64,000 nt of DNA from Candidatus Moranbacteria bacterium GW2011_GWE2_35_2- (lineage in GTDB: Bacteria > Patescibacteriota > Minisyncoccia > Moranbacterales > UBA9337). The notes beneath the pieces were generated by a model. That model was given only the letters and a program-made list of their open reading frames with translations, was not told the origin of the DNA and did not search any database. Made by a program: the position numbers and the translations under genes. This document shows, one piece after another, positions 4,729-63,817 of this stretch; position 1 is the first letter of the stretch, and the number at the start of each line of letters is the position of its first letter. The DNA is taken from positions 62,965 through 126,964 of the forward strand of contig LBQD01000001.1 of assembly GCA_000990585.1 (NCBI GenBank), given 5' to 3'.

Positions 4729-4756
4729 TAATTTTTTATCAACTAAGAGTTAAAAT

Positions 4757-5139: not shown

Positions 5140-5715
5140 ATGAAGGTTAATGCAAAATTAAAAAATTTAAGAGTTTCTCCTCGCAAAGTTAGACTGACTA
5201 CTGAGTTAATAAAAGGTATGGAGGTTGGTGATGCGATAGATCAAATAAGCGCTAATATAAAGCGTGCCAACGAGCCTATTATTAAGCTAATCAAGAGCGC
5301 TGTTGCCAGTGCGGAGAATGATTTTGGTTTGGATGCGAGCAATTTGTATATTTCTGATATTCGTGTCGATGCCGGGATTACGTTAAAGAGATGGATGCCT
5401 CGGGCATATGGACGAGCTACACAAATTTTGAAAAGAAGTTCTTGTGTTAAGCTTACGTTAAATGAAATAGTTGAGGGGAAAAACAGAAAATCAAAACAGC
5501 AAATTGATAAAGAGAAAAAAGCGAGAGAAAAGTCTGTAAAGATTGCTGAAAAGGAAATTACTGAAGGCAAAAAAGAATTAAGCGAAAGAGTTGAAGAGAA
5601 AAAGGAATCTATTTTGACGGATGTAAAAAAAGAACATCATGAAGTTGAAGCGAAAAGAAAAGAAAGCAGGCAATCCGGATGGACAAATAAAATTTTTAGA
5701 AGAAAATCAAGCTAG
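5140..5715 (+). CDS. rplV: 50S ribosomal protein L22 with a ~80-aa K/E-rich C-terminal extension
   Basis: SPRKVRL...MPRAYGRATQILKRSSCVKL is the L22 core. A charged low-complexity tail follows. Confidence 0.9.
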   Translation: MKVNAKLKNLRVSPRKVRLTTELIKGMEVGDAIDQISANIKRANEPIIKLIKSAVASAENDFGLDASNLYISDIRVDAGITLKRWMPRAYGRATQILKRSSCVKLTLNEIVEGKNRKSKQQIDKEKKAREKSVKIAEKEITEGKKELSERVEEKKESILTDVKKEHHEVEAKRKESRQSGWTNKIFRRKSS

Positions 5716-5762
5716 GAATTAAGCGTAAATCAATTAAGTTGATAATTTAGTAAAGAAATAGC

Positions 5763-34568: not shown

Positions 34569-34570
34569 TT

Positions 34571-35698: not shown

Positions 35699-35702
35699 AT
35701 TT

Positions 35703-48126: not shown

Positions 48127-49083
48127 ATGAAAATTCTCATTACGGGCGGAGCGGGGTTTATTGGTAGTGCGATTGCGAAAGCATTGATGGACCGGGGAGA
48201 TAAAGTTGTTTTGATGGATAATTTTAATGACTATTACGATCCAAAACTAAAGAGAGATAGAATAAAAAAATTTCTTGTTGGCTATGATTTTAAATTATAT
48301 AAATCTGATATTCGTTATTACAAAAAATTAGAAAGAATCTTCAAAAAAGAAAGTCCTGAAAAAGTTATTCATTTAGCTGCAATGGCCGGAGTTCGTTATT
48401 CTTTGGAAAATCCTCTCTTATATGGAGAAGTTAATTTTATGGGGACACTCAATCTTCTGGAACTTTCTCGAATTTATGGTATCAAAAACTTCATCTACGC
48501 TTCATCTTCTTCCGTATACGGAGTAAATAAAAAAATTCCATTTTCAGAAACAGATAATGTTGATAATCCAATCTCTCCATATGCAGCAACAAAAAAATCA
48601 ACCGAGCTTTTGGCACATGTGTATAGTTATACGCATAAAATGAAAACAACAGGTCTTCGATTTTTCACTGTATATGGACCTTGGGGGCGTCCAGATATGG
48701 CATATTTCAAGTTTGCTAATAATCTTTTTGCGGGCAAGCCAATTGAAATTTATAACAAAGGAAAAATGCTTCGAGATTTCACATATATCGATGATATTGT
48801 TGAGGGCATGCTGAAAGTTTTGGATGCAGATTTTGATTGCGAAGTGATGAATATTGGAGCGGAAAAACCGGAAAAATTGATGGATTATATCGAAGTGATT
48901 GAAGATAAATTCGGAAGAAAATTCAAAAAGAAAATGCTTCCAATGCAGCCGGGAGATGTTCCGCAAACAGTGGCTGATGTTTCAAAATTGAGAAAACTTG
49001 GTTGGCAGCCAACAACAAAAATCGAAAAGGGAATTGAAAAATTTGTTGATTGGTATCAGGAATATTATAAAGTAAGGAAGTAA
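48127..49083 (+). CDS. NAD-dependent sugar-nucleotide epimerase (UDP-glucuronate/UDP-GlcNAc 4-epimerase-like SDR)
   Basis: GGAGFIGS; YASSSSVYG...YAATK. Confidence 0.8.
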   Translation: MKILITGGAGFIGSAIAKALMDRGDKVVLMDNFNDYYDPKLKRDRIKKFLVGYDFKLYKSDIRYYKKLERIFKKESPEKVIHLAAMAGVRYSLENPLLYGEVNFMGTLNLLELSRIYGIKNFIYASSSSVYGVNKKIPFSETDNVDNPISPYAATKKSTELLAHVYSYTHKMKTTGLRFFTVYGPWGRPDMAYFKFANNLFAGKPIEIYNKGKMLRDFTYIDDIVEGMLKVLDADFDCEVMNIGAEKPEKLMDYIEVIEDKFGRKFKKKMLPMQPGDVPQTVADVSKLRKLGWQPTTKIEKGIEKFVDWYQEYYKVRK

Positions 49084-49084
49084 A

Positions 49085-49891
49085 ATGAATATTGATATTG
49101 AAAAAATAAAAGAAATCGCCAAAAAATCCGGGGAAAAAGTTTTGGAATATTATTACAAAGATTATAATATTTCATACAAAGATAGTGGTGGCAAAAAATC
49201 ACCTTTGACTGAGGCGGATTTAGCGTCGAATAAAATAATCATGGAAGAACTTGAAAAATATAATTTTCCGATTTTGAGTGAAGAAACGGAAGATGATTTA
49301 TCAAGGCTTCAAAGTGAATATGTTTGGATTGTTGATCCGTTGGATGGTACGAGTGATTTTATGGAAAAGACCGGTGAATTTTCGATTCTTATCGGGTTAG
49401 TAAAAAATGGTGAGCCGGTTTTGGGTGTGGTTTTCGAGCCGGCAAAAAATACTTTTTATTGGGCAGAAAAAGGGAAAGGCGCTTTTATGGAAAAAAATGG
49501 AAAAATCAAAAAAATAAATGTTTCCAATGAGGATAATTTTCAAGATATGACTATTTTGCTCTCGCGAAATCATCTTTTGGAAAGCGATAAAAAACTTTGT
49601 GAAAATTTGAAAATAGGAAAACAAACAAAAAGAGGGTCGACTTCCAAGATGTGCGTGATTGCGCGTGGAGATGCGGAAATCTATGTAAATACCAGTGATA
49701 AAACGGGGGAGTGGGATACTTGCGCGCCACAAGTAGTCTTGACGGAAGCGGGAGGTAAAATCGTGGATATGCGGGGAAAAGAACTAATGTATAACAAAAA
49801 AAACCCGAAGAATCTTAATGGATTTGTGGTGTCAAATGGTGAAAATTATGCTAGAATAGTTGAGGAATTGAAAAGGGTAATAAAAAGTTAA
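49085..49891 (+). CDS. cysQ: 3'(2'),5'-bisphosphate nucleotidase CysQ (inositol monophosphatase family)
   Basis: WIVDPLDGT. The context with cysC and sat supports a PAP phosphatase. Confidence 0.75.
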   Translation: MNIDIEKIKEIAKKSGEKVLEYYYKDYNISYKDSGGKKSPLTEADLASNKIIMEELEKYNFPILSEETEDDLSRLQSEYVWIVDPLDGTSDFMEKTGEFSILIGLVKNGEPVLGVVFEPAKNTFYWAEKGKGAFMEKNGKIKKINVSNEDNFQDMTILLSRNHLLESDKKLCENLKIGKQTKRGSTSKMCVIARGDAEIYVNTSDKTGEWDTCAPQVVLTEAGGKIVDMRGKELMYNKKNPKNLNGFVVSNGENYARIVEELKRVIKS

Positions 49892-49905
49892 ATTCAATAA
49901 GAATA

Positions 49906-50427
49906 ATGAAAAAAGGAATAGTGATTTGGCTTACGGGCTTGCCGTGCAGTGGGAAAACAACATTATCCAAGGAAATCGAAAAATATTTTCAGCAAAAGAA
50001 TTTGCCTATTCAGAGATTGGATGGCGATGTGGTGCGTGAAACCATCAGCAAGGATTTGGGATTTTCAAAAAAAGATCGCGACATTAACATAGAACGCCTT
50101 TCATATGTGGCGCAGATGCTTTCGGATAATGGAGTGAATGTGGTGTCTGCTTTTGTTTCTCCATATCAAAAAATGCGTGATTTTACCAGAAGTCTTTGTG
50201 AAAATTTCGTAGAAGTTTATGTTAAATGCGATATTGAAGAATGCAAGAAAAGAGATGTAAAAGGAATGTATGCCAAAGCCGCCAAGGGACAAATAAAAGA
50301 TTTCACAGGAGTTGATGACCCTTACGAAAACCCAAAGAATCCGGAAATTGTCGTGAGTACGGAAAAAGAAAATATAAAAGAAAGTGTCGAGAAAATCATC
50401 AACTATCTTGAAAAAAATAACGGATGA
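49906..50427 (+). CDS. cysC: Adenylylsulfate (APS) kinase
   Basis: IWLTGLPCSGKTTL...LDGD..R. Confidence 0.9.
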   Translation: MKKGIVIWLTGLPCSGKTTLSKEIEKYFQQKNLPIQRLDGDVVRETISKDLGFSKKDRDINIERLSYVAQMLSDNGVNVVSAFVSPYQKMRDFTRSLCENFVEVYVKCDIEECKKRDVKGMYAKAAKGQIKDFTGVDDPYENPKNPEIVVSTEKENIKESVEKIINYLEKNNG

Positions 50428-51485
50428 AAAAAATAAAAGCATCGGATGAAATTATTCAGGAGGCGCGTAATATTGTTGATGGATTGTATTTTCCCCTACA
50501 AGGATTTTTGAATGAAGATGACTTACGATCAATCTTGGAAAATATGCGTCTTAAAAGCGGACAAGTTTGGTCTATGCCGGTTGTTTTTGATATTTCCGAG
50601 AATGAAGCGCAAGAATTGAAAAATGAAAATTCAATTATTATTACAAATAAAAAAGATGAATTTTTTGTGAAAGATATTTCAATTTTCAAGTGGGACAGGG
50701 AATTTTTTGTCAAAAATTTATATGGAACATTAGATGGCGCGCATCCGGGAGTCGAGCGGGCAATGAAAATGAAAAAATTTCTTTTGAGTGGAAAAGTTGA
50801 AAAAATCAGAAACAGTGAAAAACCGGGAGTTTTTCATTTGACCTCCGAGCAAGCCAAAGATATTTTCAAAAAGAATGGCTGGGCGAATGTAGTAGCTTTT
50901 CAGACTAGAAACCCGCCACATCGCAGTCACGAGCATTTGCAAAAAACCGCTCTTGCGGAAGTTGACGGAATTTTGATAAATCCGGTAATCGGATCCAAGA
51001 AATCCGGAGATTTTCGCGACAAGCATATCATCGGCGCCTATCAGAAACTTATCAAGCACCATTACGAGCCGGGAAAAGCAGTTTTGGGGACACTGCACAC
51101 CTTTATGCGTTATGCCGGTCCCAGAGAGGCGGTTTTCCACGCTTTGGTGCGACGCAATTTAGGCTGTACTCATATGATTATCGGGCGGGATCACGCCGGC
51201 GTGGGGGATTATTATGGGACATATGACGCGCAAAAGATTTTCGATAATTTTACAGAAGATGAATTGGGGATTAGAATATTAAGGTATGAAAATGTGACGT
51301 ATTGTCAGGGTTGTGGCGATATGTCCGAAGATGGAAGTTGCGACCACAGCCAAGACCAAAAAATTCATCTTTCCGGCACAAAATTGCGAGAAAAACTCAA
51401 TAATAACGAAGAAATCCCAGAAGAATTTATGCGAAAGGAAGTGATTGAGTATTTGAAGGATAATAAGGATGATTTGTTTGTGTGA
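50424..51485 (+). CDS. sat: Sulfate adenylyltransferase (ATP sulfurylase, homo-oligomeric type)
   Basis: QTRNPPHRSHE, GRDHAG. Confidence 0.9.
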   Translation: MKKIKASDEIIQEARNIVDGLYFPLQGFLNEDDLRSILENMRLKSGQVWSMPVVFDISENEAQELKNENSIIITNKKDEFFVKDISIFKWDREFFVKNLYGTLDGAHPGVERAMKMKKFLLSGKVEKIRNSEKPGVFHLTSEQAKDIFKKNGWANVVAFQTRNPPHRSHEHLQKTALAEVDGILINPVIGSKKSGDFRDKHIIGAYQKLIKHHYEPGKAVLGTLHTFMRYAGPREAVFHALVRRNLGCTHMIIGRDHAGVGDYYGTYDAQKIFDNFTEDELGIRILRYENVTYCQGCGDMSEDGSCDHSQDQKIHLSGTKLREKLNNNEEIPEEFMRKEVIEYLKDNKDDLFV

Positions 51486-51665
51486 TAAAGTGGGTTGTAC
51501 GTAATTTAGGTTCTATCATAAGTAAGATATGATGCAAGTAGTTAATTTTAACGATTTACATGATAAGGTGTTAAGAGATATCAAAAACAAATGAATTTTT
51601 ATATAAAAAATAATTCAAAAAGAGTAGTTATTGAAAAAATTCACATCTTATTTTTTGGACATAAA

Positions 51666-52910
51666 ATGAGTCCAATGATGAAAAATTTTTTAAAAAATAT
51701 TTCTTGGACATCTTTTGGTTTTCTTGTGAGTTCTTTGATATTATTTACAGTTAATGTGTTAGCAGGAAGGTTTCTAGGACCAAGCGGATATGGGGAATAT
51801 AATTTTATTTTATCCGTTGCATCAATTGTTTCACTGCTTATTATTATGGGATTTGATTCATCGTCTATTAAATATATATCCGAATCAAAAACAGATAAGG
51901 ACAAAAATGAATACTTATCGGGATCATTGTGGGTTGTAATATTCTTAGCAATAGTTGTTTTGGTTGTAGTATTTTTAGCTCAAAATATTTTAAAAATATT
52001 TTTTGATATAAAAGAAGAAATTATAATAGTGTCTGTATTTTATGCTGCTTTATTGGGAATAAGAAAAATTTTAAGCAGTTTTTTGTCTAGTTTGAATTTT
52101 TTTAAGTTTCAATCAGTAATTATGATAATAGAAAGTTTAGCGGTGATATTATTATTTTTATACTTGTTTGTTATCTTAGGCTATAACCATTATTTATATT
52201 ATATTATTTCACTGTCTTTTGGAATTTTGTTGTTTTGCCTAACGACAATATTGAAAATAAGAAAAAGAGTTTTAAGGTATGATATAGATAAGATTTTATT
52301 TTTAAAACGCTATGCTATAGTCGCCTTTTTAACAGCCTTGGCAATTGCAACTCCTGTATCGCTAATAAAATTGTTTATTGGTAAATATCTTAGTATCCAG
52401 GATCTTGGAATATTTAGTGCATATATGGCAGTGACGGCTATTTTTGTAGGACAATTTATCCTTATAATTAATAATGTTTTTTTTCCGATGGTAAGTTCGA
52501 TCAATGATAAGCGACCAATTATTAATAAAATAAATAAAATTTCTTTTATTAGTTTTATTCCAATCACAGTGATTATTTTTTTAGTGGCATTTTTCATGTT
52601 GAAATTTTATGGAGATAATTATAAATTTAATATAATTTATGTAGGCATGCTATCTGTTATTTCATCATTGTTGCTTATAAATAACTTTTACAGAGTAATA
52701 GTGCAAACATACAATGAATATTACTTTAAATTACATAAATTTAACTATGTAAATATTTTATTTCTAAGTGCAGGTCTTTTTTTTATCAACATACTAGCGT
52801 TAAATAAAATGGCTTATGTTATCGGTATGTATATGCTTTATGTAGTAATAAATTTCTTTGTTCTATTTTTATTTACAAATTACTATATATTTAAAAATAA
52901 AAATATATGA
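51666..52910 (+). CDS. Wzx-like polysaccharide flippase (MOP superfamily). The ORF is open from 51591 and the start is ambiguous
   Basis: 12-14 TM; N-terminus KNFLKNISWTSFG is typical of Wzx. Confidence 0.75.
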   Translation: MSPMMKNFLKNISWTSFGFLVSSLILFTVNVLAGRFLGPSGYGEYNFILSVASIVSLLIIMGFDSSSIKYISESKTDKDKNEYLSGSLWVVIFLAIVVLVVVFLAQNILKIFFDIKEEIIIVSVFYAALLGIRKILSSFLSSLNFFKFQSVIMIIESLAVILLFLYLFVILGYNHYLYYIISLSFGILLFCLTTILKIRKRVLRYDIDKILFLKRYAIVAFLTALAIATPVSLIKLFIGKYLSIQDLGIFSAYMAVTAIFVGQFILIINNVFFPMVSSINDKRPIINKINKISFISFIPITVIIFLVAFFMLKFYGDNYKFNIIYVGMLSVISSLLLINNFYRVIVQTYNEYYFKLHKFNYVNILFLSAGLFFINILALNKMAYVIGMYMLYVVINFFVLFLFTNYYIFKNKNI

Positions 52911-53833
52911 ATAAAATTAAACTCCCATTTTTTATTGTCGGATCAGGACGTTCCGGAACGACATTATTACAATCTATGATCATGACAATTCAAGGAATAT
53001 ACATACCGCCAGAAACTAAATTACTTGGTTTGATAGAAAATATTGAAACTTTTCATGGATCAATTACTAATAATAAATCTTTCAGGCTATTGATTTATGA
53101 GATAATTAATCTATGTAAAAGAGATGAATTTCCTGTTAATTTAGTAAAATTAAAAAAAGAGCTAACGTTAATAAATAGAACGAGAAGATCAGTATTCGAT
53201 GTATTGTTATATCATATTCAAAAGCAAAGTGGTTGCAGGAGAATTGGAGAAAAATCACCTTTGCATCTTGAATATTCTAAGGATATTTTGAAAATATTTC
53301 CTGATGGAAAAATTATTGCAATAATACGTGATGGTCGTGATGTTGCATCTAGTCAGAAGGAAATTTTTAAGTTGAATGTGCTACACACTGCTCTTGTTTG
53401 GAGAAGAGATCAACAACTTATTGATAAATATTTAAAATCAGTATCGAGAGAGAGATTTATGGCTATTAGGTATGAAGACTTAATTGCTAATCCTAAAAAA
53501 GAGCTGAAAAATATCTGTCTTTTTTTAAAAGAAGATTTCAATGAATCGATGCTGGAGTTTTATAAAAGAAAAAATATTGGATTTGCAAAAAGAGAAAAGC
53601 ATAAATATGATACGCAAAAGCCAATATTCAATACAAAGCAAAATCGATATAAAAATGATTTATCCGATAGAGAAATAGCCCTTTTTGAGTTAATTGCTAA
53701 AAAACAGCTTATTGATAATAATTATAAATTAGAAAAAAAATATGTTATAGGGGGAATTTTTCAGATAATAATATGTATGCCATCCTTGATTTATGTTAAA
53801 TTAAAATGGATTATAAATAATTTGATTAGATAA
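52907..53833 (+). CDS. PAPS-dependent sulfotransferase
   Basis: 5'-PSB motif FFIVGSGRSGTTLL and 3'-PB motif IIRDGRDVASS. Confidence 0.85.
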   Translation: MNKIKLPFFIVGSGRSGTTLLQSMIMTIQGIYIPPETKLLGLIENIETFHGSITNNKSFRLLIYEIINLCKRDEFPVNLVKLKKELTLINRTRRSVFDVLLYHIQKQSGCRRIGEKSPLHLEYSKDILKIFPDGKIIAIIRDGRDVASSQKEIFKLNVLHTALVWRRDQQLIDKYLKSVSRERFMAIRYEDLIANPKKELKNICLFLKEDFNESMLEFYKRKNIGFAKREKHKYDTQKPIFNTKQNRYKNDLSDREIALFELIAKKQLIDNNYKLEKKYVIGGIFQIIICMPSLIYVKLKWIINNLIR

Positions 53834-53837
53834 AAAA

Positions 53838-55934
53838 ATGCTTGATAATTTATTAATGATATTTATTTTTTTCATAGTTCCATCAGTACTTGTTCTTAAT
53901 TTTCTCATAATTAAAAATCGAGGAAAGATCAGTATTTTTTTTATCACTCTTATTTCATTAGGGGTGGGCCCATTAATAAATGGATTATTATTCTTTTATT
54001 TGATGTGGTTTTTTCCCGAAAAAAGTGATTTATTTTATATATTGTCCCTATTGCTTTTTTGGGTAATTCCTGTTGTTTATTTGATTATTTCAATAAGATC
54101 TTTTTGTGAATTTTTATATTTGTTTATAGAAAAAATAGTTAATAAAAAAAATATAATTTATGATAGAAAATTTTTAGTGGGATATTTAATCATTGTCTTT
54201 GCTATTAGTATATTTATAACTCAGGCATTATTTTACCCCGCGGCAGATAATGATAGATCCTTATATTTAAATCAATCCGAGGCTATTTATGGGAGTAAAA
54301 ATTTTGATTGGAGAACAGAAAATAAAAATGTAATAATAAGAGGAAATGATGAATATAAATATAACCCTGCGATTAGACCGGGAATACCGTTTTCGATGAT
54401 TGTGACCTACGCATACAATGAGGATTATGATAGCAGGGATTTTTTTATTAGATTTCAGTCTGTGTATTATTATGTATTACTTTTATTATTATTCATTCTT
54501 GTTGTTTATCGATTTTCATTGAAGATTGATATTGATCCAGGAAAATCATTATTTTCATCATTGATTTTATTCGTTTTTTCTTCTGGATTGAGTCGGATGG
54601 TTATTTTCGGAAGTAAAGAAACGGCAATATATTTTTTTGCATTAGCTAGTCTCTATTTACTTATTGAAACGAATTTGTTAAAAAAAAGAGATTTATATAC
54701 TGAGTTTATTTTGGGAGTAGTTTTAGGACTTAATTCTTTTATAAATTTGCATGGTACTTTTGTCGCAGGAATAATAATTATATTAGTATTTTTATTTTCA
54801 AAAATAAAAATCGTAAAAAGAATTTCCCAAGTGTTTTCATTGGTTTTAATGATGTTTATTTTCGGAGGTATGGAAATTTTTTCTTTGGTTAAATTGATAT
54901 TTTTCAATAGAGTAATGGTGTCATCAGTGGGCGATAATACCATGTCAATTAGCAAGTTATCTAATGATATAGCAACAGTTGCCACAAGAAATAAAGAGAA
55001 TCTTACAAATATATATCAAACAAATAATATAACAGATACATATCTTAAGGGAAGATTGCAGATTCTGACTAATATTGGATATTTTGGATATCATTTCTGG
55101 ATATTTTTGATTATTATTTTTTTTAAGTGGAAAGATATTCTTAAAACACATTTTGGAAAAATAGTTAGTGTTTTTATTTTAATTTATTTTGTATTAGTGT
55201 TAGATCCATTTAATTTAAATTCCAATAGATATGCAGATATTCTATGGGGAAGTGTTAAATACGCTATGCTAGTACTTCTTTTGAGTATTATATTTTCAGG
55301 AACATTCATTCATTTATTTATGAAAAATATTGTTGATTTTATCGTAAGAAGAAGAAGATATTTAATAGTATCTGTATCAATATTTTTAATGTCCGCATAT
55401 TTTTTTTATAAACAAATAAGGGAAATTGGATTAAGTATGCTATTCTCGGTTATAAAAATCTATAAGGATACGTCTTTTTATGAGCAAAAATTCGATATAT
55501 ATTTTAAATTTCTGTTATTGATTTTAGTGGTATTTATTCTTGCTTTAATTCTTTATAGATTAATAGATAGTAAAAATTTTAATTTTATTATTTTCTCAAT
55601 GATTTGGCTGGTTATTATTACTCCATTTTTTATAATTGATATGGGAAAAGTTCCTATTTTAAAAACTTTTTCTTATGTTAAATATAAAAAGGAAGAAAAA
55701 TTGAAAAATATGGTTATGAATGGGGATGTATTTGATGTGTATTTTTACGCAAAAAAAATATTACCCAAAGATTCTGTTTTAATGACTGGGTTTAATGAGA
55801 TATTTCCATATGATGATCATTTTTCTTTGACAAAAAGAAAAACAAAAGATACATCATATTCAATATCTAAAAAATGCGACGTTGATTCAAAGATTCTATA
55901 TGAAAAAAATGGAATTTTTCTTTGTTCTAAGTGA
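53838..55934 (+). CDS. Large polytopic membrane protein (698 aa), putative Wzy-like polymerase or GT-C glycosyltransferase
   Basis: >14 TM segments; no catalytic motif recognised; context only. Confidence 0.4.
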   Translation: MLDNLLMIFIFFIVPSVLVLNFLIIKNRGKISIFFITLISLGVGPLINGLLFFYLMWFFPEKSDLFYILSLLLFWVIPVVYLIISIRSFCEFLYLFIEKIVNKKNIIYDRKFLVGYLIIVFAISIFITQALFYPAADNDRSLYLNQSEAIYGSKNFDWRTENKNVIIRGNDEYKYNPAIRPGIPFSMIVTYAYNEDYDSRDFFIRFQSVYYYVLLLLLFILVVYRFSLKIDIDPGKSLFSSLILFVFSSGLSRMVIFGSKETAIYFFALASLYLLIETNLLKKRDLYTEFILGVVLGLNSFINLHGTFVAGIIIILVFLFSKIKIVKRISQVFSLVLMMFIFGGMEIFSLVKLIFFNRVMVSSVGDNTMSISKLSNDIATVATRNKENLTNIYQTNNITDTYLKGRLQILTNIGYFGYHFWIFLIIIFFKWKDILKTHFGKIVSVFILIYFVLVLDPFNLNSNRYADILWGSVKYAMLVLLLSIIFSGTFIHLFMKNIVDFIVRRRRYLIVSVSIFLMSAYFFYKQIREIGLSMLFSVIKIYKDTSFYEQKFDIYFKFLLLILVVFILALILYRLIDSKNFNFIIFSMIWLVIITPFFIIDMGKVPILKTFSYVKYKKEEKLKNMVMNGDVFDVYFYAKKILPKDSVLMTGFNEIFPYDDHFSLTKRKTKDTSYSISKKCDVDSKILYEKNGIFLCSK

Positions 55935-56636
55935 GGTTATTTCTTTTCTTGCTTTAATTATAATATTTGGGAGAAGTAGAGATCCCCACCAGTTTCTGAA
56001 GTTTAAAAATATTCCTGAGCCGGTAGTTTTTTCTATAATAAAATTCTCTTCTTTGAGGGCTTTTTGCAAATCTTTTCTGGTAAAATATCCAATATGACCG
56101 CCATCCCATCCGTAACCCCAAGACGTTCTTGGTCTTATTCCGAAAAGGAATTTTAAACGATAGGGAAGGAAGACAATATTGGGAACTTCCAAAATAAAAA
56201 CTCCTCTTGGTTTTGTTATTCTCGCAACTTCCTTGATTGCAAAAATTGGATCGAATACATGTTCAAGGGTTGCAATCATAAATACTAGATCGAATTTTTC
56301 TTTTTCAAAAGTTAATCCGTCGTCGATGTTTTGAAAAGAAAAATTTTTTTCAAAATCTTTGAATTTTTCTTTGCAAGTTTCTACTGATTTTTTGCAGACA
56401 TCAATTCCAAATATATTTGCTTTTGGATTATCCTCCTTGAATCTTCGCAAAAGCTCTCCCTCATCGCATCCAATATCCAAAACAGCCGAAACATTTTTAG
56501 GGGATAATTTTAGCGCAACGTCTTTTCGTGTTATTTCGTATTTTGTGAGCTTATCATGCAGATAACCGAGAAATCCCAGTTGCGCAATATTCTTAGATCT
56601 GTTGTCGTAAAATTTATTGACGAAATTATTACTCAT
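55896..56636 (-). CDS. Class I SAM-dependent methyltransferase
   Basis: VLDIGCDEGELL motif I. Confidence 0.8.
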   Translation of the reverse strand: MSNNFVNKFYDNRSKNIAQLGFLGYLHDKLTKYEITRKDVALKLSPKNVSAVLDIGCDEGELLRRFKEDNPKANIFGIDVCKKSVETCKEKFKDFEKNFSFQNIDDGLTFEKEKFDLVFMIATLEHVFDPIFAIKEVARITKPRGVFILEVPNIVFLPYRLKFLFGIRPRTSWGYGWDGGHIGYFTRKDLQKALKEENFIIEKTTGSGIFLNFRNWWGSLLLPNIIIKARKEITSLRTKKNSIFFI

Positions 56637-56641
56637 TTTTT

Positions 56642-57796
56642 TTATTTTTCGATGAATGTTTTAATATTTTTTATAACATAATCAATTTCATTTTTAGATA
56701 AGTCGTAATAAAAAGGCAGTCGTAATATTCTCGAACTCAGTGATTCTGTATTTTTAAGGTCATTTTTTTTGTAGCCAAATTTTCTGCCCATTTTTGAAGA
56801 ATGAAGTGGAAGGTAATGGAATACCGCTAATATATTGTTGGTTTTTAGAAATCTCATTAAGTCATTTCTCCTTTTTTCTGTCGGTAATACAATATAAAAC
56901 ATATGATAATTTTGATTGCAACTTTCTGGAACACTTGGCAATCGAAGAAGTTTTTTTTCTTCCAGTGATCTTAGTTTTTTATAATAATATTCAAAAATGC
57001 TTTTTCTTTTTTTCTGTATTCGATCCATTTTTTCAAGTTGAGCATAAAGAGTGGCGGCTATGATCTCGGAAGGAAGATATGATGAACCTAAATCAACCCA
57101 TCCGTATTTATTTACTTCTCCACGAAAAAATTTACTGCGATTAGTTCCTTTTTCGCGAATAATTTCTGCTCTTTCGATGAATTTTTTGTTATTTATGACG
57201 AGAGCTCCTCCTTCACCACAAGAATAATTTTTGGTTTCATGAAAACTGTATATTCCAAGATCCCCGATAGTTCCAAGATATTTATTTTTGTATTTAGCAT
57301 TAACCCCCTGAGCGGCATCTTCCACTACGTAAAGTTTGTATTTCTCGGCTATTTTAATTATTGTATCCATTTCACAAGCAACGCCAGCATAGTGCACAAC
57401 AAAGATTGCCTTGGTTTTATTGGTTATTTTTTCTTCAATTAAATTTTCATCAATGTTTAGGGTGTCTTCTCTTATATCGACAAAAATAGGGATGGCTCCT
57501 TGTAAAACAAAAGCATTCGCCGTGGAGGTGAATGTATATGATGGAACAATGACTTCATCTCCGGGCTTAAGATTTAAGAGCAGGGCGGCCATATCTAAAG
57601 CATGTGTCCCTGAAGTGGTCAATAAAACTTTTTTTGCATTAAATTTTTCTTCCATCAGTAGGGAGCATTTTTTTGTAAATTCTCCGTCTCCGGAAAGTTT
57701 TCTATTTTTAAAAACTTCTGAGATGTATCTCAGCTCATTTCCAGCATATGCAGGAATGTTGAATAATATTTTCATAGGGGGTGTTTTATGGTTCAA
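56642..57796 (-). CDS. DegT/DnrJ/EryC1 family PLP-dependent sugar aminotransferase (WecE-like dTDP-4-keto-6-deoxyhexose transaminase)
   Basis: ...SGTHAL..., PSYTFTSTANA, FHETKN. Confidence 0.85.
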   Translation of the reverse strand: MNHKTPPMKILFNIPAYAGNELRYISEVFKNRKLSGDGEFTKKCSLLMEEKFNAKKVLLTTSGTHALDMAALLLNLKPGDEVIVPSYTFTSTANAFVLQGAIPIFVDIREDTLNIDENLIEEKITNKTKAIFVVHYAGVACEMDTIIKIAEKYKLYVVEDAAQGVNAKYKNKYLGTIGDLGIYSFHETKNYSCGEGGALVINNKKFIERAEIIREKGTNRSKFFRGEVNKYGWVDLGSSYLPSEIIAATLYAQLEKMDRIQKKRKSIFEYYYKKLRSLEEKKLLRLPSVPESCNQNYHMFYIVLPTEKRRNDLMRFLKTNNILAVFHYLPLHSSKMGRKFGYKKNDLKNTESLSSRILRLPFYYDLSKNEIDYVIKNIKTFIEK

Positions 57797-58187
57797 AGAT
57801 ATAGTATTTTAGTTTAAATCCAGCTTTTTCAAATAATTTCATACTAGGATTGTTATCAATTTTTATTTTTGCCTGGATATTTTTATTTTTTTTCATCAAT
57901 TCCTTGACCATAAATAGACCTATACCGTTTCCTTGATATTTTGGATGGGTAGCAATTCGTATATCTCCATCTATGGTTCCAATGAATCCAGCTGGATTTC
58001 CATCCACAAGACAGATGTAATAATTTTCTTTATATTTTTTCATGTATTCAACTTGTTGAGCGGGAGTAATATTAACCTGCTCGATGAATCCTTTTTGCAC
58101 GATAGTGTCATTTCGCAAAAGTCGCATAAATTCGTAATATTTCTCAGAATTTTTCACAAATTCAATTTTTTTCGGTATTTTTTTCAT
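57786..58187 (-). CDS. GNAT family N-acetyltransferase (WecD-like candidate)
   Basis: ...QGNGIG...; size and fold pattern; adjacent to the aminotransferase. Confidence 0.65.
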   Translation of the reverse strand: MKKIPKKIEFVKNSEKYYEFMRLLRNDTIVQKGFIEQVNITPAQQVEYMKKYKENYYICLVDGNPAGFIGTIDGDIRIATHPKYQGNGIGLFMVKELMKKNKNIQAKIKIDNNPSMKLFEKAGFKLKYYIFEP

Positions 58188-59469
58188 TGATTTTATCTTG
58201 AAGTAATTTGTTTAAAAAATCCAAATAATGCCTAATTATTATATCATTTGTGCATACCTGTGTCGAATTTTTTGTACCATCCTTATTTTCTTTGAATAGG
58301 ACGGTTTGTAGATTATCCGAAAAATTTTCGTATTTAAAATTCTCAGTACAGTATCCATTTACTCCTGGAATTATCAAGTCAGGGGCTATTCCGATGTTAT
58401 AGGCGACAACTGGAGTGCCACAAGCAATTGATTGGTTGACCATAATTGGTCCAGCATCTTCAATTGATGGACTTGCGAATACGTTTGCGGATTGATAGGC
58501 GAGTGCTAATTTTTTGATATCTTGGATCCATCCAAGGTGGGTGTGTTTGAAAATATGATTTAAACTAGGTATTTCTCTGCCGGCGGAAACCAGCAGGATT
58601 GATTTTTCTTGTTCGAAGGAAAGGGTTTTTTTGAGATTTTCCAGGGATTTAATCAGATAGTCCATTCCCTTCCTTTCATCTTGGAAATCTTGAGAGCCGA
58701 AAAATATTATTTTGTTTTCGATCGGAAGATTGAGATTTTTTCTCGCTAGTGATTTGTTTATTTTTTTAAATATGTTTTCGTCAATATTCAAAAATATTTT
58801 TTCAACAGGTCTGTTTTTAAATAACGAGCTTTCTTTGATCTTTGATTCTACCCATGATGATGTTCCTATGAAATACAGTTCGAGATCTGATAGATATTTT
58901 CTTTTATTTTCCCATATTTTTCTGGAACGGTCATTTGCTTTATCTGACTTCAGTTGCGGGCACTTTCCGCATGAATTCTTGAATCCTGGACAAGCTCCTG
59001 GATAATGGCAGCCACCGGTTATCGGTTCCAAATCCTGCATTATCCATATTATTCGAGCCCCGCTATATTTTTGGATGTGGTTTATTAGTTTGGGAGTCAG
59101 AAATCCGTCCGTCCAGTGAATGAATATGAAATCAGTGGATTCGATATGTGGTTTTATCGATTCGAAATCTACCGGACTCTCATTGCTGTTGAAAACGTTG
59201 AGTATTTCGTAGCGGTTGATTTTTTTGAGTAAACGTTTTATTTTGCCGAAAACAAAATAGGTGAGGGGATTTCTCAAAAGGTGTTGAAAAAATTTTCCAT
59301 TAAAAAATCCGCCATTTATTCCGATAACGGATGGGTCTTGTGAGCTTTTGTAGCGCACTAACATTAGTGATTCCATATTATCGGTTTGATTGAATAATTT
59401 GTGAAGTTGATAGGCTGCCATTGCAGCTCCTCCGTTTTGGTCAAACGTATTAAAATGGACTATTTTCAT
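58162..59469 (-). CDS. Glycosyltransferase (GT4-like C-terminal domain) with an internal Cys cluster
   Basis: C-terminal ...ASPSIEDAGPIMVNQSIACGTPVVA...; GGCHYPGACPGFKNSCGKCP. Confidence 0.65.
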   Translation of the reverse strand: MKIVHFNTFDQNGGAAMAAYQLHKLFNQTDNMESLMLVRYKSSQDPSVIGINGGFFNGKFFQHLLRNPLTYFVFGKIKRLLKKINRYEILNVFNSNESPVDFESIKPHIESTDFIFIHWTDGFLTPKLINHIQKYSGARIIWIMQDLEPITGGCHYPGACPGFKNSCGKCPQLKSDKANDRSRKIWENKRKYLSDLELYFIGTSSWVESKIKESSLFKNRPVEKIFLNIDENIFKKINKSLARKNLNLPIENKIIFFGSQDFQDERKGMDYLIKSLENLKKTLSFEQEKSILLVSAGREIPSLNHIFKHTHLGWIQDIKKLALAYQSANVFASPSIEDAGPIMVNQSIACGTPVVAYNIGIAPDLIIPGVNGYCTENFKYENFSDNLQTVLFKENKDGTKNSTQVCTNDIIIRHYLDFLNKLLQDKINEKNTEKN

Positions 59470-60590
59470 AGTATTGTTATTTCTTTTAATATATTGTCAA
59501 CACGTATTTTTTCTAGTATCTGCGTCGAATTATTGGTTTTGTTGATATTTTTTTTGAATACATTGTCAATGGATTCCGATATGCATTCGGCACAATTTTC
59601 CCTGATAATGTATCCGTTTTTTCCATTTTCGATAAGATCAGCGCTCGCTCCTACTTTTTCAGTGGTAATTACCGGTAATCCACAGGCGATTGCTTCATTA
59701 ACCACTTGTCCCCAAATATCTTGTCGCGATGGAAATAATAATAAGTCTGAAATTCCATAATATTTATATAATTCCTTATATTGTACAAATCCCGCGAAGA
59801 ATACATTTTTTATGTTATCTTTCTTGATAATTTCTTTTAATTTTTCTTCATCAGGACCGGTGCCCATTAGGATGAGAGAAGTGTTAGAATCTTTTTTTAA
59901 GTACTCTTTAAACGCTACAATCATTTCAAAAATACCTTTCATTTCTATCAATCTTCCGCTAAAAAGAATAGTTTTCGTTGTTTTAATCCCTATCTTTTTT
60001 CGGAGTTCGTTTTTTTGATTGTCAGTAAATGAGCGTATTTTTTCTTGAAAAAAATCGACATCAATGGTGTTGTAAAATATCTCCACGTTTTTTTCAGGTG
60101 CTCCTAATGAAATCAGATATTCTTTGGATCTTGTTCCATAGGATAAAAATTTGTGGCTTCTTTTCACGATATATTTTACCAACGGACCAAAGAGGGTCCT
60201 TCTCCAACTCGGTTCATATTTAGTGCTTCCTGACCAAAGAATGAATTCTTTTTTGTTTTTGCGTGCCCACCAGTTTGCTGCGTAAGCAGCAAAATGATCC
60301 CAACCGAAACATATTATTTTATCTGGATTTTCTGATTTCAATAATTTTATCATTCCAAGGTTTATAAAAAAGGTATTTAAATCCTTTCCATGTTCTCTAA
60401 TTGCAAAATTATTTAATATAGTATAGTCAAATTTCATTCCTTGTTCTCGTTTCCAGTTTCTATTTTTATCTGATTCACTTAAAAAAACAACCTTAAGATT
60501 GCGATTATGTTTTTTTAGATAGTCGTAGATTTTGTTAAACAAAAAAACTCGTATCGGACCTATGTAGTTTATGATTATTAAAATTTTCAT
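59466..60590 (-). CDS. GT4 (group 1) glycosyltransferase
   Basis: ...E.FG.V..EA.ACG.PVI.... Confidence 0.82.
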   Translation of the reverse strand: MKILIIINYIGPIRVFLFNKIYDYLKKHNRNLKVVFLSESDKNRNWKREQGMKFDYTILNNFAIREHGKDLNTFFINLGMIKLLKSENPDKIICFGWDHFAAYAANWWARKNKKEFILWSGSTKYEPSWRRTLFGPLVKYIVKRSHKFLSYGTRSKEYLISLGAPEKNVEIFYNTIDVDFFQEKIRSFTDNQKNELRKKIGIKTTKTILFSGRLIEMKGIFEMIVAFKEYLKKDSNTSLILMGTGPDEEKLKEIIKKDNIKNVFFAGFVQYKELYKYYGISDLLLFPSRQDIWGQVVNEAIACGLPVITTEKVGASADLIENGKNGYIIRENCAECISESIDNVFKKNINKTNNSTQILEKIRVDNILKEITIL

Positions 60591-61370
60591 TTATTTCATA
60601 AGGCTCAATAATCGATAAATCATAGTTATCTTGTAATAATTGAATTTATGCAAGAATAATGATGCTGGATATTTTTTTCCGTATTTTTTAGCTAGCCTTA
60701 GTTCATCTTGAAATTGTTTTTTGTTGACACTGCCACTTTTGCTGTTTGGATAATATCTGAAATTCGCCAGATAATTATTAATAACTCCGGCTGGGTATTT
60801 TTGACCGATTCTAAGCCAAAATTCATAATCCATACACAGATGCTCATTTTCATCAAAAAAACCCCTCTCGGCGTGAATTTCGCGCTTCCAGAAGGTTGCT
60901 GGTTGGGAGATGAAATTTTCCGACAGCAATTTCGGGTAGCTGAATTTTTTGAGCAGTAAGTTCTTGTAAGTAGTTATCGGTTTGCGTATTTCTTGATCAT
61001 TTTCGTTTACTATTTTGCATTTTCCATAAGCCCAGAGTTTATCCGGATTTTTTTGAAAAAATTCCGTGACTTTTTTGAATGCTTCCGGTTCATAGGTGTC
61101 GTCGGAGTTGAGATAGGCGACGATTTCGCCGGTCGCCATTTCGAGACCCTTGTTAATTGCATCTGATTGCCCGTTGTCTTTTTCGGATTTCCAGATGACG
61201 CGGTCGGAATATTTTTTCAAAATTTCAATTGTTCCGTCAGTTGATCCTCCGTCCATAATGATATATTCAAGATTCGGATAATCTTGCTTGAGCACGCTCA
61301 AAATCGTCCGTTCAATAAATTCGGCTTGATTGTATGATGGGGTAATAATTGAAATTTTAGGATTGTTCAT
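60591..61370 (-). CDS. GT2 glycosyltransferase
   Basis: [14 protein letters not shown]...DGGSTDGT...NSDD. Confidence 0.85.
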
Positions 61371-62292
61371 AATTTTTCAGAAACCATTGGTAGGTATCTT
61401 TGATTCCTTGATTGAGTTCAATTTTGTGCTTCCAATTGAGACTGTGCAATTTGGAAACATCCAGAAGTTTTCTTGGTGTGCCGTCCGGTTTTGATGTGTC
61501 ATTTTTTATTTCTCCTTCAAATCCGACTATCCGTTTGACTGCTTCGGCTAATTCTCGAATGGAAATATCCTGTCCGGTTCCAATGTTTACGATTTCATTT
61601 TCGTTGTAATTTTCCATCAAAAAAATACAAGCGTCAGCCAAATCATCAACGTGCAAAAATTCTCTTTTTGGGGAACCTGTTCCCCAAATCAATACTTCTT
61701 TTTGATTATTGATTTTCGCTTCGTGAAATTTTCGGAGTAGGGCAGGGAGAACATGAGATGAATTCAAATCAAAATTATCATTCGGTCCGTATAAGTTTGT
61801 CGGCATAACAGAAATATATTTTGTGCCATATTGTTTGTTATATGACTGGCACATTTTAATTCCGGAGATTTTGGCAACAGCGTAGGCTTCATTTGTTCTT
61901 TCCAGCGGTCCGGTCAAAAGATATTCTTCTTTGATTGGTTGGGGACATTCGCGCGGATAAATGCAAGAGCTTCCGAGAAAAAGAAGTTTTTTGACTCCAC
62001 TTAGATAGGCATTGTGAATAATATTGTTTTGTATTTGCAGATTTTGAAAAATGAAATCGGCGGGATAGGTATCGTTTTCCAATATTCCGCCAACTCTCGC
62101 AGCTGCCAGAAAAACATATTCCGGTTTTTCTGTTTCAAAGAATTTTTTTACTTCCTGCCAGTCGAGCAGATCTAATTCTTTGTGTGTTTTCAAAACGAGA
62201 TTGTTAAATCCGTTTGATTTGAGATTGCGAATAATAGCTGAACCGACAAGTCCATTATGCCCCGCGATATATATTTTAGAATTCTTTTCCAT
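61357..62292 (-). CDS. fcl: GDP-L-fucose synthase (GDP-4-keto-6-deoxymannose 3,5-epimerase/4-reductase)
   Basis: [14 protein letters not shown]...GSSCIYP...YAVAK. Confidence 0.88.
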
Positions 62293-62302
62293 ATGCTTTG
62301 TC

Positions 62303-63340
62303 TTATGATTCTTTTTTCATATCCGCTTTCATCATTATTTTTACCAATTCTTTGAATTTGGTTTTCGGCTTCCACTTCAATTCCTTTGCCGCCTTTGTCG
62401 GATCTCCCAGAAGTAGATCAACTTCAGTAGGGCGGTAATATCTTGGATCGATTCTAATTATTATTTTCTTTGTATTTTCATCAATTCCAACTTCTTTTTC
62501 TTTTTTTCCTTTCCATTTCAATTTTATTTTGGCGACTTTGCAAGCCTCTTCAACAAATTCTCGCACGCTGTGAGTTTCGCCTGTTGCCAAAACGAAATCA
62601 TCCGGAGTTTTTTGTTGGAGCATCAGCCACATCCCTTCCACATAATCTTTTGCATAGCCCCAGTCCCGTTTGGAATCGATATTTCCCAAATAGAGGCAGT
62701 CATCTTTTCCGGCTAAAATTCTGGCAAGTCCGCAAGTGATTTTTCTGGTCACAAAAGTTTCTCCGCGACGCGGTGATTCATGATTGAAAAGAATTCCATT
62801 GCAAGCGTATAGGTCATAACTTTCTCGATAATTTACGGTTATCCAATAAGAATATAGTTTAGCGACTCCATATGGTGAGCGGGGATAAAACGGAGTAGTT
62901 TCTTTTTGCGGGGTTTCTTGAACAAGTCCGAAAAGTTCACTGGTGGAGGCTTGGTAAAATTTGGTTTTTATTCCTGACTCTTTGATTGCATCTAAAATTC
63001 TCAACGTTCCAATGCCGGTGACATCGGCGGTATATTTTGGAACATCAAAACTAACTTTTACGTGGCTTTGAGCGGCAAGGTTGTATATTTCATCCGGCTT
63101 TATTTTTTCAATTATGCGGCTAATATTGCTTCCGTCCGACAAATCTCCATAGTGCAAAAACAAACGCACATTGTTCAGGTGCGGATCTTTGTATAAATGA
63201 TTTATTCTTCCTGTGTTGAATGAGCTTGATCGGCGAATTATTCCGTGAACCTCGTAGCCTTTTTCAAGAAGTAATTCAGCTAGGTATGATCCGTCTTGTC
63301 CCGTTATTCCCGTTATTAATGCTTTTTTCTTTTTTTTCAT
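62303..63340 (-). CDS. gmd: GDP-mannose 4,6-dehydratase
   Basis: [29 protein letters not shown]. Confidence 0.9.
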
Positions 63341-63373
63341 TATCGCGCAGTGTATTAGATTTTTTACGATTGT

Positions 63374-63721
63374 TTATTGTTTGATCTTAGATTCGTCAAT
63401 GGTCTTTTTTCTTACGATTTCAGTCATTTGCTGTTCCAGTCTTTCGATGGCGGAGAGCAGTTTGAATATCATTAGGAATATTAAAAGAAATCCGGCAAGT
63501 ATTACGGCGTTTATATTTCCTTCAAGTCCAATTACGCGAGCCATTATATTGGTAAAAGAAGGAAAGAGCGCAATCAGAATCATTCCACCCCAGACAAAAA
63601 AACGAATGGATAGCTTATAAAAATTCTGACCCGTCTTACCTTTGACAAAATTTACAATTCCGGAATAAATCATCGATGAGGAAACCAGAATTACGATAAA
63701 TTGATATAAATGTAATTGCAT
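63374..63721 (-). CDS. Small 3-4 TM membrane protein (DUF2304-like) commonly found beside GT2 genes
   Basis: Size, TM pattern and C-terminal amphipathic helix; context. Confidence 0.5.
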   Translation of the reverse strand: MQLHLYQFIVILVSSSMIYSGIVNFVKGKTGQNFYKLSIRFFVWGGMILIALFPSFTNIMARVIGLEGNINAVILAGFLLIFLMIFKLLSAIERLEQQMTEIVRKKTIDESKIKQ

Positions 63722-63782: not shown

Positions 63783-63817
63783 AAAATGCTTACAAGTCGC
63801 GGACTTGTAAGCATTTT
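63783..63817. terminator. Strong hairpin (GCTTACAAGTC-gcg-GACTTGTAAGC) flanked by A- and T-runs
   Basis: Read directly; sits just downstream of the stop of a minus-strand ORF fragment. Confidence 0.65.

Follow-up and report, generated by a model that had tools for sequence, protein, structure and literature searches.

A cell-surface glycan operon of Candidatus Moranbacteria predicted to supply fucose and, very probably, N-acetyl-fucosamine

Positions 55896-63721 of the 64-kb stretch of DNA analysed here (hereafter, the window) form the principal operon of a locus for a cell-surface glycan, of an everyday type and well conserved, in Candidatus Moranbacteria GW2011_GWE2_35_2-, an uncultured groundwater member of the Candidate Phyla Radiation (CPR). 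Candidatus Moranbacteria has a single-membrane envelope. The operon is predicted to make activated fucose and, very probably, a second activated deoxy-sugar, N-acetyl-fucosamine; both would be joined to the surface glycan. Homology underlies the fucose and Fuc4N steps, and conserved gene order those proposed for acetylation, glycosyl transfer, methylation and RmlA/RmlB supply. We consider the whole reading likely, i.e., a glycan operon with GDP-L-fucose and dTDP-Fuc4N(Ac) branches, decoration by glycosyltransferases, methylation and sulfation, and sugar addition like that of GacIJKL. Every enzyme of the operon falls in an already known family and the pathway is of a known kind, with a GNAT acetyltransferase in place of WecD as a probable substitution.

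The operon consists of nine closely packed minus-strand ORFs, running from 63721 to 55896 with intergenic gaps of -26 to +33 nt, and the ORF calls and coordinates of an earlier note on this DNA proved exact. Pfam and NCBIfam profile searches, which that note had suggested for each ORF, assigned families to all nine, i.e., a DUF2304 protein, Gmd, Fcl, one GT2, two GT4, a small GNAT, a WecE orthologue and a SAM methyltransferase. The note's count of four glycosyltransferases fell to three (GT2, GT4a and GT4b), and the ninth ORF (DUF2304, 63374-63721) was missing from its description. At its 5' end the operon is bounded by a terminator-like hairpin, which terminates the preceding gene.

63783-63817, minus strand: terminator-like hairpin (16-bp stem, then a T run)
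63374-63721, minus strand: DUF2304 small membrane protein of the GacJ/Rv3632 family, 115 aa (PF10066, 5.5e-15)
62303-63340, minus strand: Gmd, GDP-mannose 4,6-dehydratase (TIGR01472, 599.5 bits; cut-off 415)
61357-62292, minus strand: Fcl, GDP-L-fucose synthase (NF047922, 516 bits; cut-off 500)
60591-61370, minus strand: soluble GT2 (GT-A), 259 aa (PF00535, 6.8e-33)
59466-60590, minus strand: GT4a glycosyltransferase, 374 aa (PF00534, 3.3e-36)
58162-59469, minus strand: GT4b, a divergent GT4-like glycosyltransferase, 435 aa (PF00534, 5.9e-18)
57786-58187, minus strand: small GNAT acetyltransferase, 133 aa (PF00583, PF13508)
56642-57775, minus strand: WecE/RffA, dTDP-4-keto-6-deoxy-D-glucose 4-aminotransferase, 377 aa from ATG (NF008687, TIGR02379)
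55896-56636, minus strand: class I SAM-dependent methyltransferase, 246 aa (PF13489, PF13847, PF08241)

The predicted conversion of GDP-mannose to GDP-L-fucose by Gmd and Fcl, already proposed in the earlier note, is firmly supported at the sequence level. Both enzymes exceed their equivalog cut-offs, and the catalytic residues of Gmd (TSE133-135 and Y157xxxK161) and the motifs of Fcl (GSSC107-110 and Y137xxxK141) are intact.

The aminotransferase is a WecE orthologue, predicted to convert dTDP-4-keto-6-deoxy-D-glucose to dTDP-4-amino-4,6-dideoxy-D-galactose (dTDP-Fuc4N), and the submitter's annotation had already named it RffA. It scores 601 bits against NF008687 (cut-off 375) and 567 bits against TIGR02379 (cut-off 435), and is 55% identical to E. 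coli WecE over essentially the full length, with one internal single-residue gap. Its PDB matches to the WecE structures 6blg and 4piw (E ~1e-130) are far stronger than those to GDP-perosamine synthases (1e-43). That it acts on a sugar, unlike the non-sugar members of the DegT family, is supported. The mechanically called ORF begins at a TTG codon at 57796 (384 aa); the PLP-lysine motif FHETKN, noticed previously, occupies residues 185-190 of that ORF (window 57244-57227), and SFHETKN is conserved. WecE places an axial (galacto) amine, so of the two products suggested earlier Fuc4N(Ac) is retained and a viosamine-like sugar is less likely.

The order GT2_229, DUF2304, gmd, fcl, GT2, GT4b, GNAT, WecE and methyltransferase is shared with two related loci, L042 and L043, at 49-86% identity, and its last six genes are present in L039. 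The loci L044 and L045 retain gmd/fcl, the GT2, Wzx and a GT-C enzyme (L044 also DUF2304) and lack GT4b, GNAT, WecE and the methyltransferase, so that the Fuc4N genes form a separate accessory branch. Given that gmd/fcl occur without WecE/GNAT in L044 (and fcl likewise in L045, a cut locus), and that no gmd/fcl was found within 10 kb of WecE/GNAT in L115 and L117, the two branches are independent.

In line with the earlier note, which saw no rmlA or rmlB in the window, tblastn searches of 74 kb (the window and a further 10 kb) with the E. coli proteins RffG and RffH as queries detected neither gene; RffG matched only an SDR protein, Gmd and Fcl, and RffH had no match. In L039, L042, L043, L115 and L117, too, the cassette has neither gene within 10 kb. 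Cassettes of the order WecF-GNAT-WecE also lack rmlAB in cis, so this absence is uninformative, and according to published work rmlABCD are commonly found in Parcubacteria and Patescibacteria (PMC5220378, PMC11809585). We assume that rmlAB most likely lie elsewhere in the genome, where the RmlA and RmlB they encode would provide the dTDP keto-sugar for a standard dTDP-Fuc4NAc pathway. The SDR protein had been put forward as another possible source of the keto-sugar.

48127-49083, plus strand: SDR epimerase of the UDP-glucuronate 4-epimerase type (PDB 5u4q, 3e-102; 6zl6, 4e-50)

This protein falls below the equivalog cut-offs of RmlB (TIGR01181, 175 bits versus 365) and of GalE, and 6zl6 is the UDP-GlcA 4-epimerase of B. 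cereus. It carries SSSSVYG in place of the STDEVYG of dehydratases and therefore cannot supply the keto sugar; lacking the Asp-Glu pair that follows the catalytic Thr and scoring below the cut-off, it is ruled out as a 4,6-dehydratase or RmlB. Its top PDB match, 5u4q, carries SSSSVYG too, despite its dehydratase name.

The earlier note had also considered a GDP- or UDP-linked keto intermediate as the start of the amino-sugar branch, which is not supported. In one form of this idea Gmd feeds the branch: the WecE-like enzyme aminates GDP-4-keto-6-deoxy-D-mannose, the resulting GDP-4-amino-4,6-dideoxyhexose (perosamine- or talosamine-like) is acetylated by the GNAT, and no dTDP pathway is involved. 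We judge this very unlikely. It would account for the presence of gmd and the WecE/GNAT pair in one operon, with no rmlA or rmlB within 10 kb, in the window locus, L042 and L043, and pathway loss is frequent in small CPR genomes; however, matches to GDP-perosamine synthases are ~87 orders of magnitude weaker than those to WecE, and the aminotransferase lies 226 bits above a WecE equivalog cut-off. The WecE orthologues of L009, L015 and L016 have rmlB-rmlA immediately upstream, and the window enzyme is 50-59% identical to such orthologues, a divergence no greater than theirs from E. coli WecE (46-53% identity). Four dTDP-associated orthologues have 143 invariant columns, of which 104 are likewise unvaried across the CPR clade, and the changes fixed in this clade at otherwise invariant columns are conservative only, none being radical. 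The separate occurrence of gmd/fcl (L044, L045) and WecE/GNAT (L115, L117), and the WecF-GNAT-WecE cassettes that likewise lack rmlAB in cis, also speak against the Gmd-fed route.

In the step after WecE, the small GNAT probably replaces WecD as the candidate dTDP-Fuc4N N-acetyltransferase and would acetylate the amine to give dTDP-Fuc4NAc, an assignment based on conserved gene order. We retrieved 46 homologues and 290 metagenome relatives of this protein. A DegT-family ORF lies within 2 kb downstream in 57 of the 63 metagenome loci with enough sequence (within 50 nt in 38 of the 57), and the gene adjoins a DegT-family aminotransferase gene in five further contexts, which upholds the functional coupling proposed earlier. 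The order in L054, L115 and L117 is WecF-like GT56, GNAT and WecE, and in L056, a short contig, the sequence stops after GT56-GNAT. The protein was rejected as a WecD orthologue, as it is a single domain of 133 aa versus the 224 aa of WecD and has no significant similarity to it: pairwise BLASTP against E. coli WecD gave at best 22.7 bits over 35 residues of the WecD N-terminal region (single-pair E 0.002), and neither database BLAST nor NCBIfam gave a WecD match.

Across NCBIfam, the PDB and the WecD comparison, no characterised sugar N-acetyltransferase resembles the GNAT, and only two of its database matches carry a name, RimI (3.3e-8, well under the cut-off) and the protein acetyltransferase 3f8k. 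These matches, the dissimilarity to WecD and the co-variation of the methyltransferase with the WecE trio would be compatible with a RimI-type enzyme acting on a protein or small molecule, and with a glycan bearing free or N-methylated Fuc4N in which the methyltransferase acts on the amine. We hold this to be unlikely, given that DegT-family neighbours were found in nearly all contexts examined, that in L054, L115 and L117 the GNAT fills the slot between a WecF-type Fuc4NAc transferase and WecE where an acetyltransferase is needed (with L056 ending after the GNAT), and that the methyltransferase lacks specific similarity to sugar N-methyltransferases in the PDB.

GT4b, whose PDB matches are only weak, invariably lies immediately upstream of GNAT-WecE in the CPR loci, i.e., in the position taken by WecF elsewhere, and this synteny makes it a candidate Fuc4NAc transferase. 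WecF/GT56 itself was rejected for the operon glycosyltransferases, none of which matched PF07429, and tblastn with WecF over the 74 kb found nothing. The GT2 at 60591-61370 best matches the C-terminal domain of chondroitin synthase in the PDB, followed by SpsA, and its orthologues in L042-L045 are 66-79% identical; GT4a occurs in the window and L039 and is missing from L042 and L043. Judging by gene order, GT2 and GT4a may add more residues, including fucose, to a polyprenyl-linked acceptor. For the initiating phosphoglycosyltransferase, no WecA homologue was found in the 74 kb and no such family in the Pfam scans of ORFs from 21582 onward. The methyltransferase (PDB 3cc8, 1.3e-14) accompanies the GT4b-GNAT-WecE trio in all four loci and would, by the same reasoning, methylate the product. 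Sulfation may follow from the genes next door.

49085-49891, plus strand: CysQ (PAPS supply)
49906-50427, plus strand: APS kinase CysC (PAPS supply)
50424-51485, plus strand: ATP sulfurylase Sat (PAPS supply)
52907-53833, plus strand: PAPS-dependent sulfotransferase (PF13469, 7.3e-31)

Sulfotransferases are again found beside the GNAT-WecE cassette in L039 and L115, and with the PAPS genes adjoining the operon the methylated and sulfated decoration predicted earlier is plausible.

The DUF2304 protein is likely the partner of a polyprenyl-phosphate sugar synthase. Membership of the GacJ/Rv3632 family was judged by a DUF2304 Pfam match, a length of ~113 aa and about three TM helices; the protein scores 56 bits against PF10066 (cut-off 25.5) and has three to four hydrophobic segments by hydropathy. 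GacJ, itself a DUF2304 protein, stimulates GacI (bioRxiv 10.1101/180810). A PpgS-like GT2 of ~230 aa is encoded ~4 kb upstream of DUF2304, just outside the window, with Fic, a sigma-54 activator and two unknown genes in between; DUF2304 directly follows such a GT2 in L042 and L043, and the pair is split in L044 by inserted genes including Fic. All of the best GT2 matches are to polyprenyl-phosphate sugar synthases (PpgS, DPMS and ArnC), and the one to PpgS (2e-45, 155 bits) falls well short of the equivalog cut-off (370). Two further membrane proteins are encoded convergently.

51591-52910, plus strand: Wzx-family flippase (GacK-like or O-unit flippase; PF01943, 8.5e-21, and PF13440)
53838-55934, plus strand: 698-aa polytopic membrane protein (GT-C fold, by fold model)

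The 698-aa protein has no Pfam or NCBIfam match and no WWD motif (oligosaccharyltransferase WWDYG) in its sequence. It models as a GT-C glycosyltransferase, its polytopic N-terminal module resembling ArnT, PMT or STT3, and may have a GacL/ArnT-like role. The GacJ-type DUF2304 protein and the PpgS/GacI-like synthase, with the convergent Wzx and GT-C proteins, would probably attach a sugar on the outer side of the membrane, in the manner of GacIJKL. A classical Wzx/Wzy repeat-unit polysaccharide cluster, in which the 698-aa protein is the Wzy polymerase or a ligase, is in our view improbable, though a membrane protein accompanies Wzx in all four loci covering both (the window, L044, L045 and L039, the last with a 562-aa membrane protein four genes from Wzx). 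The polytopic nature and very low GC content (~25%) of the 698-aa protein gene, whose 3' end runs 39 nt into the methyltransferase gene, are likewise typical of wzy genes.

The locus resembles the GacIJKL system of the streptococcal group A carbohydrate side chain and PpgS-Rv3632 of M. tuberculosis in having DUF2304, a ~230-aa GT2, a Wzx-family protein and a GT-C transferase, with adjacent GT2 and DUF2304 genes in L042 and L043; it differs in the ~4 kb separating these two genes in the source genome, in a GT-C protein without a sequence-level family and in a PpgS score of 155 against a cut-off of 370. In gene adjacency, equivalog scores and intact motifs the gmd-fcl pair matches its counterpart (gmd-fcl/wcaG) in colanic acid and O-antigen clusters, only the glycan context being different. 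The GDP-perosamine pathway (Gmd, Per and PerB/WbdR) likewise combines Gmd, a DegT-family 4-aminotransferase and an N-acetyltransferase, encoded here in one operon; however, the aminotransferase here is an orthologue of WecE and not of Per (1e-130 versus 1e-43), and with Fcl present the Gmd product has its own sink. Known perosamine N-acetyltransferases are left-handed beta-helix proteins, not GNATs. The Fuc4NAc branch of E. coli ECA (RffG/RffH, WecE, WecD and WecF) is paralleled by a WecE orthologue above the cut-off (55% identity), an acetyltransferase and a dedicated glycosyltransferase beside it, and a Wzx gene nearby, whereas here rffG/rffH are not in cis, the 133-aa single-domain GNAT is unrelated to the 224-aa WecD, the adjacent transferase is GT4-like and not a GT56 WecF, and the organism has neither an outer membrane nor ECA.

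The minus-strand region 55896-63721 comprises nine ORFs, to which profile searches assigned families; neighbouring ORFs overlap by as much as 26 nt or are separated by as much as 33 nt. The module described in the earlier note is thus real, and the FHETKN motif reported there was found in the aminotransferase; however, its description had omitted the DUF2304 gene, and the number of glycosyltransferases is three by profile search, not four. A strong terminator-like hairpin (63817-63783) ends the gene before the operon, and the last operon gene and a convergent plus-strand gene overlap by 39 nt at their 3' ends. A promoter scan yielded no more sites than shuffled sequence. The source organism is a member of the Parcubacteria/CPR from the Rifle aquifer, and in the submitters' annotation the aminotransferase already carries the name "Lipopolysaccharide biosynthesis protein RffA", with GT4b entered as "Glycosyl transferase group 1".

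Genes of the operon, in order of transcription, and the associated GT2 beyond the window.
63374-63721, minus strand, DUF2304 membrane protein (PF10066)
62303-63340, minus strand, Gmd (TIGR01472, 599.5 bits, cut-off 415)
61357-62292, minus strand, Fcl (NF047922, 516 bits, cut-off 500)
60591-61370, minus strand, GT2 of 259 aa (PF00535)
59466-60590, minus strand, GT4a, a GT4 (PF00534)
58162-59469, minus strand, GT4b, a divergent GT4-like enzyme (PF00534, weaker)
57786-58187, minus strand, GNAT, 133 aa (PF00583, PF13508)
56642-57775 from ATG, minus strand, WecE-type aminotransferase (NF008687, 601 bits, cut-off 375)
55896-56636, minus strand, class I SAM methyltransferase (PF13489 and related)
5365-6054 of locus L001 (which extends past the window), some 4 kb after window position 64000, GT2_229, a polyprenyl-phosphate sugar synthase of 229 aa resembling PpgS/GacI

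Gmd and Fcl both scored above their profile cut-offs, bearing out the proposed GDP-L-fucose branch. In another assembly of the same organism (GCA_000992235.1, LBTV01000016.1; locus L003, 10382-11181) gmd is broken into two ORFs; given that the window and four other assemblies have the gene whole, the split is probably an assembly frameshift.

For the amino-sugar branch, the aminotransferase was compared with characterised enzymes and with orthologues of known context. Among PDB entries it matched WecE structures (6blg, 4piw) at E ~1e-130 and GDP-perosamine synthases at 1e-43 only, and it aligned with E. coli WecE over nearly the whole length at 55% identity with one single-residue internal gap. 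In one Methanothrix and two Eubacteriales genomes, rmlB-rmlA lie directly upstream of WecE orthologues that are 50–59% identical to the window enzyme and 46–53% identical to E. coli WecE. The dTDP specificity of the WecE clade was judged by column conservation: 104 of the 143 columns invariant in four dTDP-associated enzymes were also invariant in all seven CPR-clade members, and the differences fixed in the CPR clade at such columns were L/M, E/D, D/N and D/E. Based on the PDB ranking, the E. coli alignment, the rmlBA-linked orthologues and the column conservation, we read the enzyme as a predicted dTDP-4-keto-6-deoxy-D-glucose aminotransferase, whose product should be Fuc4N. A quoted table gives the amine placed by WecE as axial, i.e., the galacto (Fuc4N) configuration, so the viosamine-like product suggested before is not expected from a WecE orthologue. 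The suggestion of a GDP- or UDP-linked start was likewise not supported by these comparisons.

The supply of the keto sugar was sought in the window and in the 10 kb past its right end. Tblastn with E. coli RffH detected no RmlA there, and with RffG, the E. coli RmlB, it matched only Gmd, Fcl and the SDR-type epimerase at 48127-49083 (plus strand), in agreement with the earlier note, which had seen neither rmlA nor rmlB in the window. On an alternative reading, this small CPR genome has no rmlA or rmlB, and the conserved operon is a pathway in which the WecE-clade enzyme would aminate the Gmd product, GDP-4-keto-6-deoxymannose, towards a GDP-linked 4-acetamido-4,6-dideoxyhexose. Such re-wiring, if true, would mean that nucleotide specificity had changed within an otherwise strictly dTDP-dependent orthologous group, and we consider it very improbable. 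A literature search combining Moranbacteria with dTDP found nothing. The clearest Fuc4NAc cassettes (WecF-like/GNAT/WecE, on metagenome contigs L115 and L117) also have no rmlAB within 10 kb, and the SDR adjacent to them is GalE-like; missing rmlAB in cis is therefore not informative. The rmlABCD genes are reportedly common in Parcubacteria and Patescibacteria (PMC5220378, PMC11809585), and for the dTDP-linked pathway we assume that RmlA and RmlB are encoded elsewhere in the genome.

The catalytic motif of the epimerase at 48127-49083 and its family scores led us to reject the possibility, raised before, that it supplies the keto sugar. It reached 175 bits against the RmlB profile (cut-off 365), also missed the GalE equivalog cut-off, and carries SSSSVYG at the place where RffG has STDEVYG, the Asp-Glu pair being the acid/base of the dehydration step in the RmlB mechanism. 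Its best PDB match was 5u4q, followed by B. cereus UDP-glucuronate 4-epimerase structures. The depositors labelled 5u4q a dTDP-glucose 4,6-dehydratase, yet it has SSSSVYG rather than STDEVYG and resembles UDP-glucuronate 4-epimerases; on these sequence features the entry is probably misnamed. A UDP-glucose dehydrogenase gene lies ~10 kb upstream, so UDP-GalA is the likely product of the window epimerase.

To what extent the operon is conserved was evaluated using loci that share its genes. At least three further Patescibacteria-like contigs have kept it, with protein identities of 49–86%. Two of the retrieved loci (L042 and L043, with operon genes in this identity range) share the order GT2_229, DUF2304, gmd, fcl, GT2, GT4b, GNAT, WecE and methyltransferase; the DUF2304 protein of L043 has a BLAST identity of only 25%, yet was called as PF10066. 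A Patescibacteria MAG with 27% GC (L039) encodes GT2, GT4a, the methyltransferase, GT4b, GNAT and WecE, followed by a convergent membrane protein, Wzx and a sulfotransferase. Two further loci (L044 and L045) retain gmd/fcl, the 259-aa GT2, Wzx and the large membrane protein (and L044 also DUF2304), but are without GT4b, GNAT, WecE and the 246-aa methyltransferase. Because the fucose core persists there without these genes, the Fuc4N genes with their transferase and methyltransferase are best read, from gene content, as an accessory four-gene block inserted into a fucose-containing core.

The GNAT was rejected as a WecD orthologue, as it showed no significant similarity to WecD; nor did profile and PDB comparisons detect any to characterised sugar acetyltransferases. 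Its family, compact (~130 aa) and widespread, comprises 46 protein-database clusters, and JGI metagenomes yielded 290 relatives; a DegT-family gene abuts the GNAT gene in five independent contexts. Among the 63 metagenome loci with enough sequence downstream of the GNAT, a DegT-family ORF follows within 50 nt in 38 and within 2 kb in a further 19. Three of the contigs (L054, L115 and L117) have the gene order GT56 WecF-like (PF07429, 86 bits), GNAT, WecE, with WecE 61–62% identical to the E. coli enzyme, and a fourth (L056) keeps the GT56-GNAT pair before the contig ends. In L115, the cassette is followed by a sulfotransferase, a Wzx-like gene and a GT4. The GNAT thus occupies the position at which ECA synthesis needs WecD, from which we infer that the family may be a non-orthologous replacement of WecD, and likely the acetyltransferase of Fuc4NAc-type cassettes without WecD, which would make a useful annotation correction. 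GT4b was rejected as WecF at the sequence level; its position would make it the substitute for WecF in the CPR loci.

In marine metagenome contigs, members of the GNAT family are usually followed by a half-length DegT-like protein of ~207 aa (e.g., 10381-11004 in L071, with equivalent ORFs in most of L046–L125) that carries only part of the DegT_DnrJ_EryC1 domain, often with a Methyltransf_24 protein next and a UDP-GlcNAc 2-epimerase before the pair. Another contig with a GNAT homologue (L040) encodes, at 2489-4984, an 831-aa UDP-glucose/GDP-mannose dehydrogenase with a faint LAGLIDADG match, possibly indicating an intein.

On the plus strand (48127-53833), the epimerase gene is followed by those for CysQ, CysC, Sat, Wzx and a sulfotransferase, making the predicted sulfation of the glycan reasonable; L039 and L115 likewise have a sulfotransferase next to this cassette. 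GC content is ~25% across the sulfotransferase and GT-C genes (52000-56000) vs 33–40% elsewhere in the window; such a drop is commonly seen in those variable parts of glycan loci that are exchanged horizontally.

GacJ of Streptococcus pyogenes and Rv3632 of M. tuberculosis belong to the DUF2304 family; both are small membrane proteins, and they stimulate polyprenyl-phosphate sugar synthases (GacI and PpgS) to which they bind (bioRxiv 10.1101/180810). In L042 and L043 the DUF2304 gene comes after a GT2 of 229–231 aa. In the source genome GT2_229 lies ~4 kb upstream of DUF2304, with genes for Fic, a sigma-54 activator, an fn3-like 216-aa protein and a 121-aa protein in between; a Fic gene is inserted at the same junction in L044. 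The PDB matches of GT2_229 were polyprenyl-phosphate glycosyltransferases only (DPMS, ArnC), its best NCBIfam match was PpgS (2e-45, below cut-off), and its homologues always lie downstream of Wzx, separated from it by a single gene for a modifying enzyme. The large 698-aa membrane protein (53838-55934, plus strand) was rejected as Wzy in favour of a modelled GT-C fold. A second small glycosylation module lies at 32649-36707 on the minus strand. Its GT2 (334 aa) is of the polyprenyl-phosphate sugar synthase type, matching AglJ, PpgS and ArnC, and is accompanied by a GT4 and a DUF6541 membrane protein of 639 aa; the module may represent a further pairing of a GT2 with a GT-C enzyme.

In the proposed mechanism, homology indicates that GDP-Man would be converted to GDP-Fuc, dTDP-4-keto-6-deoxyglucose to dTDP-Fuc4N and sulfate to PAPS, while synteny suggests that the GNAT performs the N-acetylation, that GT4b transfers Fuc4NAc and that methylation is tied to the Fuc4N branch. 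The operon predicts a testable glycan composition: L-fucose and Fuc4NAc, together with methyl and sulfate groups. Members of the CPR/Patescibacteria live attached to other microbes, and to our knowledge almost nothing is known of their surface glycans, which are unstudied. The locus is a conventional surface-glycan locus with every part from known enzyme families, and does not overturn current understanding. GT2_229, DUF2304, Wzx and the GT-C enzyme together match the GacI-J-K-L set, and the most economical reading of this synteny is a GacIJKL-type extracytoplasmic step in which a sugar would be added outside the membrane from a polyprenyl-phosphate donor.
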